Source: Escherichia coli
Lineage (GTDB): Bacteria; Pseudomonadota; Gammaproteobacteria; Enterobacterales; Enterobacteriaceae
NCBI RefSeq assembly: GCF_044324875.1
Contig: NZ_CP172185.1
Reading direction: 5' to 3' (one strand)
DNA length: 64,000 bases
Below are positions 33,798 to 39,879 of this stretch, piece by piece; the first letter of the stretch is position 1, and each line of letters starts with the position of its first letter. The notes beneath the pieces were generated by a model. The model saw only the letters and a list, made by a program, of their open reading frames with translations. It was not told the DNA's origin and ran no database searches. The translations under genes and the position numbers were made by a program.

Positions 33798-34202
<405 letters not shown>

Positions 34203-34528
34203 TGGCTTCTGATAATTCGATTGACCGTTGGCGGATGCGGCGCGAATGCCTTGTCCGCCCCACAACGCACCACAATCGTAGGCCTGAGAAGACGCAACAG
34301 CGTCGCATCGGGCAATCAGCTTCAAACAGTGCCACTCAAAACGTCAAATTACTTTCACCTAAAATACCCTTATCACCTGATATACAGTGAATACCTTACC
34401 TGGCGCGAATTTCTTTGAATAACGGCCTACCGACCCGCTTATTTGCGCATCTTTTGTCTCGATATACATTTTCTGACATCCTCATCCGCTATGCTACAGG
34501 CACTAAAAATGGTTATTGAGGAGCAAAT

Positions 34529-35188
34529 ATGGCTAACTGGTTAAATCAACTGCAATCCTTGCTTGGGCAAAGCAGTTCTTCTGCCTCCTCGTCTGCGGAT
34601 CAGGGATTGGGCAAACTTTTAGTGCCAGGCGCATTAGGCGGACTGGCTGGGCTGCTGGTCGCAAATAAATCAGCACGTAAACTTCTTACGAAATATGGCA
34701 CCAACGCGTTACTGGTTGGCGGCGGAGCGGTCGCGGGTACGGTGCTGTGGAATAAATACAAAGATAAAATTCGCGCGGCGCATCAGGACGAACCGCAGTT
34801 TGGCGCGCAAAGTACGCCGCTGGATGAGCGTACGGAACGTTTGATCCTTGCGCTGGTCTTTGCCGCTAAAAGTGATGGTCATATTGATGCCAAAGAACGT
34901 GCGGCAATCGATCAGCAATTGCGTGAAGCCGGTGTGGAAGAACAGGGGCGTGTACTCATTGAGCAGGCAATCGAACAACCGCTGGATCCACAACGCCTGG
35001 CTACCGGGATTCGCAATGAAGAAGAGGCGCTGGAAATCTATTTCCTGAGCTGCGCGGCTATTGATATTGACCATTTTATGGAACGCAGTTACCTGAATGC
35101 ACTGGGTGACGCGCTGAAAATCCCCCAGGATGTTCGTGACGGCATTGAACGCGATCTCGAACAGCAAAAACGTACTTTGGCGGAATAA
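34529..35188 (+). CDS. yebE: Inner membrane protein YebE (DUF533)
   Basis: 219-aa [44 protein letters not shown]... Confidence 0.85.
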
Positions 35189-35351
35189 TTCCGCTCTCAG
35201 GATAGCCTGAAGTTGACTATTTCGGGCTATCCAGAACCGCACAGCCATTTGAACAGGCTGATTTTCTCTGTCTGCATAACATTCGATATCCGCGCCATTA
35301 CCTGTCATCATGTGACTGCTCCCCGCCCTGTCGGGCAAGGCTTCCCACTTC

Positions 35352-36521
35352 TTAAGCCGCAACCGTCTGTGCTACGGATTTATGCTGGCCTCCATGGGCA
35401 GAAACGACGAGTCCCGCCGCTTGTAATTCCAGTATGCCCTTGCGTTTGATGTTGAGCGCCGCGTTGATATCGCGGTCATGTTCAACTCCACACTCTGGAC
35501 ACTGCCAGATGCGCTTATGTAATGGCATCTCCGACATTTTGTGACCGCAGCAGTGGCAGGTTTTCGAACTGGCGAACCATTGATCCAGTTTCACCAGATG
35601 CACACCTTTCTCTGTTGCTTTGTATTCCAGTTTTGTGATGAATCCAGACCATCCAGCATCGCCTATCGCACGAGCCAGATGGTGATTTTTCATCATATTT
35701 GCCGTTTTCAATGTCTCGACAATTACCGCTTGGTTTTCGTCAACAATTGCGCGAGATAACTTGTGCTGGAAATCGGCACGGGCACTGGCTACCCGTTCGT
35801 GAACGGCTGCAAGTTGTATTCTGGCTTTGCGCCTGTTTGCGTTCCCTTTTTTCTTACGGGACAGTGCTTTCTGCTTCCGGCGAAGGTTGCGACTTGCATT
35901 GATTAGGTGGCGGGGACTGGCAATTTTATTGCCGTCCGATTTGATGACAAAATGCGCCAGCCCCATATCCAGCCCTGTCACATTTGATATCAGTGCAGGC
36001 TTTGCCGGCGCTTCCATCCCGTCGTCACAAAGTAACGACGCGTAGTATTTCCCGGTTGCGCTGCGGCTCAACGTGATACTTTTCAGCATTCCCGTAATTT
36101 CACGATGTAAACGCGCTTCAATCGGCAAGATTTTCGGTATTTTTATCGCACCATCAAGGACTTTTATGCCAACACAATGATAGCTCGATTGTCTGCCGTG
36201 TTTACTTTTAAAGGTAGGTTTACCTGCTTTCAGTTTCGGATTGAAAAAGTTAGAAAAAGCCACGTCGAGGTTAATTACCGCCTGCTGCAACGCAATAGAA
36301 TCATATTCTTTAAGCCATCCATACCGGCGGGATTTCTTCGCCACTGCAAGCAGTGGTTTGAGGTCTTTACGCGGGTTTAAATTTACGCGGTGCCGCTGGT
36401 AAGAATGTTTCTTGATATGCAGAGCTTTGTTGTACGCAAAACGCACTGCACCGAACTGGGCGTTGATAAATTCAGCCTGTTCTGGTGTCGGGTAGATGCG
36501 TACTTTTGTTGCTCTTAACAT
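35352..36521 (-). CDS. tnpB: TnpB (OrfB_IS605) RuvC-like putative RNA-guided nuclease
   Basis: 389-aa ORF; RuvC-like motifs TGLDMGLAHF, AVIVETLK and EHDRDINAALNI plus zinc finger CHCCGHK...CPECG; architecture typical of IS605/IS607 TnpB. Confidence 0.85.
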   Translation of the reverse strand: MLRATKVRIYPTPEQAEFINAQFGAVRFAYNKALHIKKHSYQRHRVNLNPRKDLKPLLAVAKKSRRYGWLKEYDSIALQQAVINLDVAFSNFFNPKLKAGKPTFKSKHGRQSSYHCVGIKVLDGAIKIPKILPIEARLHREITGMLKSITLSRSATGKYYASLLCDDGMEAPAKPALISNVTGLDMGLAHFVIKSDGNKIASPRHLINASRNLRRKQKALSRKKKGNANRRKARIQLAAVHERVASARADFQHKLSRAIVDENQAVIVETLKTANMMKNHHLARAIGDAGWSGFITKLEYKATEKGVHLVKLDQWFASSKTCHCCGHKMSEMPLHKRIWQCPECGVEHDRDINAALNIKRKGILELQAAGLVVSAHGGQHKSVAQTVAA

Positions 36522-36577
36522 AATCAGCGCTCATTGATATAATGCTTTTATTTTAACACTTTAGGTAAATATATCAA

Positions 36578-37003
36578 TTGAGTAATCATGATGATTTACT
36601 GGCGGGATTTCTCCGCAAACGACACAGTGTCAGTAAGCTGGTTGTGCACCTTATTTTTACGACAAAGTATCGACGCAAACTATTCGACAGTCAGATGATC
36701 GCTCAGTTGCGTGAGGCTTTTGGCTCCGCTGCGGCAAAGCTTGAATGCGAAATTATTGAGATGGACGGGGAGCCAGACCATGTACACCTGCTGGTTGCCT
36801 ACCCGCCAAAACTGGCGGTCAGTGTGATGGTCAATAATTTAAAATCGGTATCATCACGTTTGCTACGCCAGCAGAACGCGCATTTACGTATGCAGAGTAA
36901 AACGGGGCTTTTGTGGTCGAGATCGTACTTTGTCTGTAGCACCGGAGAGGCAACGATTGAAACGCTCAGAGCCTACGTTCAGAGTCAGTCAACACCTGAT
37001 TGA
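36578..37003 (+). CDS. tnpA: IS200/IS605-family Y1 (HuH) transposase TnpA
   Basis: 141-aa ORF with HuH motif HVHLLV and C-terminal Tyr region SRSYFVCSTGEATIE; ORF-track first codon is TTG and no in-frame ATG precedes the conserved N-terminus. Confidence 0.75.
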   Translation: MSNHDDLLAGFLRKRHSVSKLVVHLIFTTKYRRKLFDSQMIAQLREAFGSAAAKLECEIIEMDGEPDHVHLLVAYPPKLAVSVMVNNLKSVSSRLLRQQNAHLRMQSKTGLLWSRSYFVCSTGEATIETLRAYVQSQSTPD

Positions 37004-37132
37004 TCTTTAAAGCCCTGCGGGCTTTTCGCCTTATATCCCCGCCCGCATTGGGCGAGGGTTTACGGCGTTTTTCGCTAAGCAATGACTACCCTGTTTCGCT
37101 TGCATCTCCGGTGAGTTTTGCCACCCTTATAA

Positions 37133-39879
<2,747 letters not shown>

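Follow-up and report, generated by a model that had tools for sequence, protein, structure and literature searches.

A predicted omega-RNA scaffold spanning the tnpB 3' end and the right end of an ISEc46-type element in Escherichia coli

In the 64-kb stretch of Escherichia coli DNA analyzed here (64,000 nucleotides of contig NZ_CP172185.1, hereafter the window), the genes yebE (34529-35188, plus strand) and ptrB (37160-39220, plus strand) flank a complete ISEc46-type element of the IS200/IS605 family, 1763 bp in length (35312-37074), whose top strand is the minus strand of the window and whose right end very probably encodes an omega-RNA (right-end RNA, reRNA) for the element's own TnpB protein. 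At the identical locus of E. coli MEI003 (99.8% identity), RefSeq names an ISEc46-family element, FDAARGOS_1288 is another strain that carries the insertion, and the same yebE-ptrB insertion was found in 400 of 5426 complete E. coli genomes, the remaining genomes carrying the empty site. Comparison with two empty sites (L001 and L003), which read ...CCTGTCATCAT/CTAAGCAATGAC... with the slash marking the junction, placed the element exactly at 35312-37074, with no target-site duplication at these borders, and the tnpB-proximal (right) end, ...GAGCAGUCAC/, at 35312. A further comparison used 80 relatives belonging to other genera (Photorhabdus, Xenorhabdus, Serratia, Halomonas/Vreelandella, Idiomarina, Shewanella, Vibrio, and others). 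In roughly 70 of them, homology in the tnpB 3' region breaks off at the identical base, ...GGGGAGCAGTCAC/ (shared ...AGTCAC/), and the right-end flank is distinct in every independent copy. Because the empty sites and the loss of homology among the relatives agree on the same base, the right end, which an earlier note on this sequence could not fix by eye and proposed to define by comparison with an empty site, can be set at the 35311/35312 junction, only 40 nt from the tnpB stop codon.

The element carries two divergent genes. The first, tnpB (35352-36521, minus strand), is an intact RNA-guided endonuclease gene of 389 codons identified from Pfam, NCBIfam, and structural homologs, and its open reading frame (ORF) runs from 36521 to 35352 and closes with TAA at 35354-35352, exactly where the earlier note had placed the stop. 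The TnpB protein contains the Pfam domains HTH_OrfB_IS605, OrfB_IS605, and Cas12f1-like_TNB, is full length, scores 339.7 bits against NCBIfam NF040570 (cutoff 100), and matches the ISDra2 TnpB structures 8bf8, 8exa, and 8h1j over residues 4-380 (E = 9e-74). The RuvC acidic residues are kept, with D185, E269, and D351 aligning with the D-V-G, E-h-L, and HDRD motifs of ISDra2 TnpB (catalytic triad D191/E278/D361), and the zinc-finger cysteines are likewise conserved. The second gene, tnpA (36578-37003, plus strand), encodes a Y1 HUH transposase of 141 amino acids that is annotated in RefSeq as 'ISEc46 family transposase' and scores 141.8 bits against NCBIfam NF033573 (cutoff 55). When the TTG start is used, TnpA covers profile positions 3-125 of 126, and a published claim that the ISEc46 TnpA is truncated at its N-terminus was therefore not supported. 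The left end (37004-37074, minus strand), delimited from the sequence and the relatives, contains a subterminal hairpin at 37058-37037, CCCUCGCCC-AAUGC-GGGCGGGG, that matches the right-end hairpin on the same strand. The features of the IS200/IS605 family are all present: there are no terminal inverted repeats, similar subterminal hairpins occur at both ends on one strand, and insertion is 3' of a fixed tetranucleotide.

To locate an RNA at the right end, a covariance model, R1, was built from 63 relatives; the window copy and a nearly identical copy from Kluyvera were excluded. When R1 was run against the window, the omega-RNA search that the earlier note had suggested, it returned a single match, at 35312-35426 on the minus strand, covering model positions 1-115 with a score of 118.6 bits (E = 2.3e-23). 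A search of 80 further relatives on viral contigs gave 35 matches, of which all but one lie on the tnpB strand and overlap the 3' end of that gene, and the matches extend to relatives whose TnpB is only 33-45% identical. The scaffold delimited by this model and by covariation is 115 nt long and ends in ...GGGGAGCAGUCAC at the right end. About 72 nt (35355-35426) lie inside the tnpB ORF and 40 nt lie past the stop codon, so that the scaffold covers the 24 terminal codons of tnpB, plus its stop, on the same strand. The earlier note was therefore right in kind in proposing a TnpB omega-RNA that is encoded at the tnpB 3' end, crosses the right end, and draws its guide from the bases immediately beyond it, but it had looked for the scaffold downstream of tnpB, whereas about two thirds of it lies inside the ORF, upstream of the interval that had been flagged (35190-35360). 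Some 70% of that interval (35190-35311) is host flank, namely the guide followed by unrelated yebE-ptrB intergenic DNA.

The predicted fold consists of a series of helices on the minus strand. Stem 1 (35402-35422) is a hairpin in which AAGCGGC (35422-35416) pairs with GUCGUUU (35408-35402) around the loop GGGACUC (35415-35409). Stem 2 (35344-35398) is a long-range helix between CCCAU (35398-35394) and GUGGG (35348-35344), and it encloses both the tnpB stop codon and stems 3a and 3b. Stem 3a (35355-35390) joins GGCCAGC (35390-35384) to GCGGCU (35360-35355), and within it stem 3b joins CCGUA (35377-35373) to GACGG (35367-35363); the stop codon falls within the internal loop that separates the 3' arm of stem 3a from that of stem 2. 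Stem 4 (35321-35340) is the subterminal hairpin of the right end, CCUUGCCC-GACA-GGGCGGGG, with arms at 35340-35333 and 35328-35321, six Watson-Crick and two G.U pairs, and a start 12 nt past the tnpB stop; as DNA, it is presumably the hairpin recognized by TnpA. The palindrome noted earlier at 35322-35341 is this helix, and it is conserved in 65 relatives. The tail AGCAGUCAC (35320-35312) completes the scaffold. Stem 1, the pseudoknot 5' strand described below, the 5' arm of stem 2, and stems 3a and 3b are thus all within the tnpB coding sequence, while the 40 nt between tnpB and the flank hold stem 4, the 3' arm of stem 2, and the pseudoknot 3' strand, so that structured scaffold does remain in the interval where its absence would have spoken against the earlier proposal.

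Support for this fold is primarily comparative. Alignment A2, comprising 65 distinct sequences of the element's final 185 nt, yielded an RNAalifold consensus of 36 pairs, from which a core of 31 pairs was tested. Standard pairs are formed in 98.3% of the cells of this core, and 19 of the 31 pairs show changes on both sides (168 cells). None of 500 shuffled controls reached any of the five observed measures, and sliding the partners by 1-3 columns left only 37-57% of cells paired. By helix, 97-99% of cells are paired in stem 1 (helices 1 and 2), with compensatory changes at four of seven pairs; 99.7% in stem 2 (helix 3), with compensatory changes at four of five pairs (CCCA/UGGG, CUUA/UAAG, CCAA/UUGG); 98-99% in stems 3a and 3b (helices 4 and 5), with compensatory changes at 8 of 11 pairs; and 96.9% in stem 4 (helix 6), whose closing pair is GC in 34 and CG in 25 of the 65 relatives. 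Energy minimization of the window sequence by itself returns the same helices. Where the ORF and the scaffold overlap, entropy at third codon positions falls from 1.07 to 0.73 bits and entropy at first and second positions rises, the pattern expected if RNA constraint is laid over coding constraint.

Two further helices were considered and set aside. The terminal ACUG/CAGU helix in the 189-nt single-sequence fold is not kept in relatives, which carry ACAG and similar sequences there. A long-range GAC/GUC helix proposed by RNAalifold (A2 columns 22-24/201-203) involves an Asp codon in which C and U at the wobble position both pair with G, and this helix competes with the pseudoknot. An all-against-all column scan for Watson-Crick covariation was swamped by G.U-compatible pairs derived from kinship, and only helices that had already been predicted emerged from it. 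In copies from Halomonas, Vreelandella, and Marinospirillum (L067, L068, L073, L075, L077, L078, L083), the stem-4 hairpin is lengthened by a 13-16-nt insertion with a paired extension of its own (GUGGCGC...GCGC; A2 columns 170-184).

In addition to the nested helices, the loop of stem 1 forms a pseudoknot with the tail. Its 5' strand, GACU (35410-35413, minus strand), pairs with AGUC (35314-35317, minus strand), which lies 2 nt before the guide, and in the window copy all four pairs form. In the close family, the pseudoknot is 93.5% paired and its 3' strand is invariant, and the close family was therefore pooled with the distant model matches and ISDra2. In the pooled set, complete four-pair combinations of loop and tail were GACU:AGUC (60 sequences), GGCU:AGUC (five), GAAC:GUUC (five), GAAU:GUUC (three, including ISDra2, where the pairing has been seen by cryo-electron microscopy (cryo-EM)), GGCA:UGUC (two), and GACA:UGUC, GGAU:AUUC, and GGUU:AGUC (one each). 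Between clades, pairs 3 and 4 of the pseudoknot thus covary, and their register is that of the solved ISDra2 structure.

The best-studied RNA of this kind is that of ISDra2 TnpB from Deinococcus radiodurans, whose omega-RNA, or reRNA, was reportedly described by Karvelis in 2021. In both systems, the RNA comes from the tnpB 3' end and the right end, the guide is read from the flank, and the scaffold is about 115 nt long, with the order of helices and their distances from the guide agreeing within a few nucleotides: stem 1, a pseudoknot to nucleotides 3-6 before the guide, the long-range stem 2, stems 3a and 3b, and stem 4 with its tetraloop. Counted from the guide, the ISEc46 helices lie at -111..-105 with -97..-91 (stem 1), -87..-83 with -37..-33 (stem 2), -79..-73 with -49..-44 (stem 3a), -66..-62 with -56..-52 (stem 3b), and -29..-22 with -17..-10 around a tetraloop at -21..-18 (stem 4). 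The cryo-EM structure of the 116-nt ISDra2 scaffold has stem 1 at -116..-111 with -91..-86, the pseudoknot at -105..-103 with -5..-3, stem 2 at -84..-81 with -35..-32, stem 3a at -77..-71 with -48..-42, a flexible stem 3b in a region that is disordered in the structure, and the stem-4 tetraloop at -20..-17 (Nakagawa 2023, PMC10097598). The ISDra2 RNA (Supplementary Table 1, PMC10097598) can also be aligned directly with the ISEc46 family, GCUCAUGGAGGCU with GCCCAUGGAGGCC and GAAGUGAGA with GAAGUGGGA, sharing the motifs GCxCAUGGAGGC and GAAGUGxGA; stem 2, CUCA/UGAG in ISDra2 and CCCA/UGGG in ISEc46, differs by compensatory changes in the same alignment columns. The ISDra2 sequence was machine-read from the PDF file and its indexing is 1-2 nt off the numbering of the paper, so these positions are approximate, and MAFFT with --add and --keeplength mangled stems 1 and 4, for which reason a fresh alignment and manual indexing were used instead.

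The two systems differ in several respects. The target motif is TTGAT in ISDra2 and TTAG in ISEc46, the right-end tail is UUCAA rather than GUCAC, the pseudoknot is GAA(U):(G)UUC rather than GACU:AGUC, and the 7-nt stem-1 loop of ISEc46 is much shorter than that of ISDra2. Moreover, tnpA of ISEc46 is divergent from tnpB (an IS605-type layout), the host belongs to the Enterobacterales, and ISDra2 has been studied by experiment, whereas ISEc46 is known here from sequence alone. The guide RNAs of type V CRISPR (clustered regularly interspaced short palindromic repeat) systems, such as the Cas12f single guide RNA, share with the ISEc46 RNA a pseudoknot directly before the guide and a RuvC and zinc-finger protein core, but ISEc46 has no CRISPR array, a single guide set by the insertion site, and an RNA that overlaps the nuclease ORF. 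The ISEc46 omega-RNA is an ordinary member of a well-known system and a clear structural homologue of its best-studied example.

We also examined the flanks for the sequences that a TnpB-RNA complex would be expected to read. On the minus strand, the empty site is ...GCTTAG/ATGATGACAGG, and TTAG (37075-37078, minus strand) belongs to the host and immediately precedes the left end. In other genomes, 50 of 53 left-end junctions carry TTAG, with the pattern TTAG/C(A/G)AAA...CGTAAACCC, and an IclR-family gene of E. coli holds a second insertion of independent origin, which reads ...TTCTTAG/left end...right end/CCTTGATCACC and thus has another right-end flank than the window copy. The element therefore inserts 3' of TTAG on the tnpB-sense strand, and TTAG is the predicted target-adjacent motif (TAM) of ISEc46. 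The predicted guide, AUGAUGACAGGUAAUG (35296-35311, minus strand), comprises the first flanking bases beyond the mapped right end, with its length of 16 nt borrowed from ISDra2. TTAG followed by this guide has no other occurrence in the window; the sole approximate match is the right-end junction itself, where TCAC stands in place of TTAG. The predicted target is thus 5'-TTAG followed by ATGATGACAGGUAAUG, which would be formed only after excision of the element and resealing of the yebE-ptrB site. This geometry is that of the homing model that Meers reportedly put forward in 2023 for IS200/IS605-family TnpB, in which the TAM lies in the left-end flank and the guide in the right-end flank, an arrangement that exposes the donor site as a target only once the element has been excised and the site resealed. 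For ISEc46, the geometry is what the sequence displays; excision, cleavage, and restoration by recombination are what the model would predict.

Taken together, these observations lead us to read 35312-35426 (minus strand) as encoding the omega-RNA scaffold of an intact ISEc46 element, with its guide at 35311-35296, a reading to which we assign a probability of roughly 85%. Transcription would begin at the tnpB promoter and proceed through the ORF and the right end into the flank, and the last ~115 nt of the element fold into stem 1, the pseudoknot, the long-range stem 2, stems 3a and 3b, and stem 4, as the covariation and the homology to ISDra2 show. By analogy with ISDra2, TnpB would bind this scaffold, and 5' processing and trimming would produce a mature RNA with ~16 nt of flank. 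The TnpB-RNA complex would then be expected to cut TTAG-ATGATGACAGGUAAUG, present only at the donor site resealed after TnpA-mediated excision; the occupied site would be spared given that its right end presents TCAC at the TAM position, and recombinational repair could restore the element, as envisaged in published work on IS200/IS605 TnpB proteins. A promoter-like site is present upstream of tnpB (36550-36577, minus strand), consisting of TTGATA, a 16-nt spacer, and TG-TAAAAT, a consensus match of 10/12 with an extended -10. A terminator scan identified no intrinsic terminator, either beyond the right end or in the hairpin beside yebE. The 56-bp spacer between tnpA and tnpB (36515-36577) contains two divergent promoter-like sites that overlap each other (consensus matches of 11/12 and 10/12, each with an extended -10) as well as a 9-bp perfect inverted repeat, ATTGATATA/TATATCAAT (36533-36541/36570-36578), which could be a shared operator.

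Several considerations weigh against this reading. The single-sequence fold has a z-score of only about -1.9, which would be unconvincing in isolation from the comparative evidence. One or two mismatches occur in the 4-bp pseudoknot in 17 of 99 relatives. No Rfam family was matched at E <= 1 in 35190-35500 (34000-38000 was searched), a result that indicates only that no curated model covers the region. Transcript ends, processing, and TnpB binding are all features that we infer, and TAM dependence and cleavage are predictions. In addition, stem 4 doubles as a DNA signal for the transposase, so that its conservation alone is no proof of an RNA role. This last point can be extended to an explanation without any functional RNA, in which the conserved sequence would reflect a transposition signal acting at the DNA level, namely the hairpin that TnpA binds at the right end, together with coding conservation. 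It is true that stem 4 has a left-end counterpart on the same strand, as expected for TnpA recognition, and that the upstream two thirds of the scaffold codes for protein. However, neither TnpA binding nor coding accounts for the compensatory changes in four helices that lie partly or wholly in the ORF, and the flattened codon-position periodicity in the overlap, the covariation of the pseudoknot between clades, and a layout matching the RNA seen by cryo-EM on a homologous protein all argue against this explanation, which we regard as very improbable.

The scaffold of the window copy also carries three private substitutions (35337A, 35372C, and 35373T on the plus strand), the sole differences from the closest E. 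coli copy (MEI003) across 1763 bp, and the one at 35373 leaves an A.G mismatch as the top pair of stem 3b. These substitutions, or alternatively a silent promoter, could mean that the omega-RNA gene is present but that this copy is an inactive relic. The substitutions are nevertheless expected to have little effect, because stem 3b, which the affected pair only caps, is disordered in ISDra2, and its deletion there, in the trim2 variant, raised editing activity. The change at 35337 merely converts a C:G pair of stem 4 to U.G, and that at 35372 falls in a loop. Moreover, the copy retains its high score with R1, tnpB and tnpA are full length with the catalytic residues intact, and a near-consensus promoter-like site is present, and we consider an inactive relic unlikely. 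The same 35373 change alters TnpB residue 384 (Ala here, Thr in MEI003). The three differences fall within 37 nt, two of them adjacent, a clustering that would be unexpected from random drift.

A different layout, closer to that of the earlier note, would have the scaffold extend downstream of the tnpB stop as far as a stem at 35200-35232 and would put the right end close to yebE. That stem is real and very stable: the perfect 8-bp helix that had been pointed out, GGATAGCC...GGCTATCC (35200-35207/35225-35232), exists, its start having been given one base off, and it belongs to a 14-bp stem that lies 12 nt past the yebE stop on the plus strand and is not followed by a U-run. On that strand, it has a folding energy of -24 kcal/mol and a z-score of -4.55, with none of 200 shuffles as stable, far better than on the tnpB strand (z = -1.74). 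The hairpin is, however, present in all E. coli empty sites examined, and it is host DNA outside the scaffold rather than part of the transposon because it occurs in genomes without the element. As all DNA up to 35311 is present in element-free genomes and the relatives show no homology beyond 35312, the empty-site comparison refutes the extended layout, which we give practically no chance of being correct. Neither stem 4 nor the 8-bp stem is a chance match, and the latter is probably a 3' hairpin of the yebE mRNA that is unrelated to the transposon.

For the omega-RNA scaffold of ISEc46, what is new here is descriptive, namely the exact scaffold, guide, and TTAG motif for this lineage, a fold supported by covariance, and the covariation of the pseudoknot. 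The annotation names the TnpB protein and not its RNA partner, to which a scaffold, guide, TAM, and fold are now added; the term 'reRNA' is absent from a publication that names both ISEc46 and TnpB. The ISEc46-type TnpB lineage is widespread in Enterobacterales and other Gammaproteobacteria, and the covariance model is ready for annotating such RNAs. The prediction of TTAG plus a 16-nt guide is testable in the best-studied bacterial host, and the guide-proximal pseudoknot, earlier known only from solved structures, gains backing from covariation, while the current understanding of TnpB systems is unchanged. In a broader view that we consider somewhat more likely than not, and clearly less certain than the scaffold itself, the ISEc46 clade would be a natural, E. 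coli-resident TnpB system closely related to ISDra2, with a shorter and different TAM (5'-TTAG) and a compact 115-nt scaffold. If active, such a system would maintain the yebE-ptrB insertion in ~7% of complete E. coli genomes, and it could find use as a model studied in its native host or, given its new TAM, as an editing tool.

The relatives showed a number of additional features. Many Photorhabdus copies lack tnpA and consist of the left end, tnpB, and the right end only, with the left end starting ~154 nt before the tnpB ATG (L011, L016, L019, L021, L023, L024, L026, L027, L030-L033, L036). The scaffold and the TTAG junction are kept in all of these tnpA-less copies, which are numerous per genome, with at least 12 loci in P. 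thracensis DSM 15199. In several Photorhabdus copies, an end hairpin is interrupted at its loop by foreign sequence with the ends GAGGGTGTCGCAAAAG... and ...CTTTTGCGACACCCTC (L022 2262-2390; left ends of L008, L013, L028, L029, L034, and L037; right end of L052, 3650-3665), a pattern suggestive of a second small element, or of recombination, with the hairpin loop as its target. A lone right-end-like piece comprising stem 4 and the tail ...GGGGAGCAGTCAC, with no tnpB, is found at L100 3251-3356 (minus strand), ~600 nt downstream of a complete copy and in the opposite orientation.

Among other observations, weak matches to the Rfam family naRNA4, a nucleoid-associated RNA derived from repetitive extragenic palindromic (REP) sequences, occur at 34184-34260 and 34281-34332 (minus strand) with scores of 29.4 and 26.3 bits (gathering score 59.5); these stretches are yebF-yebE intergenic DNA and look like REP-type repeats. 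A 1960-bp contig binned in a 'Collinsella sp.' metagenome-assembled genome (MAG), L004, contains the same insertion, and because its yebE-ptrB flanks are identical, it is mis-binned E. coli DNA; the origin of an 88%-identical copy on a 'Paceibacterota' MAG contig (L006) is suspect. Finally, a copy on a plasmid of E. coli ET979 (L085) is truncated by IS1, and its right-end flank, GGATCATGTTTGCTGCAACA, is that of a copy on a chromosomal contig of Kluyvera cryocrescens (L070), which suggests that the same insertion has been carried on a plasmid.

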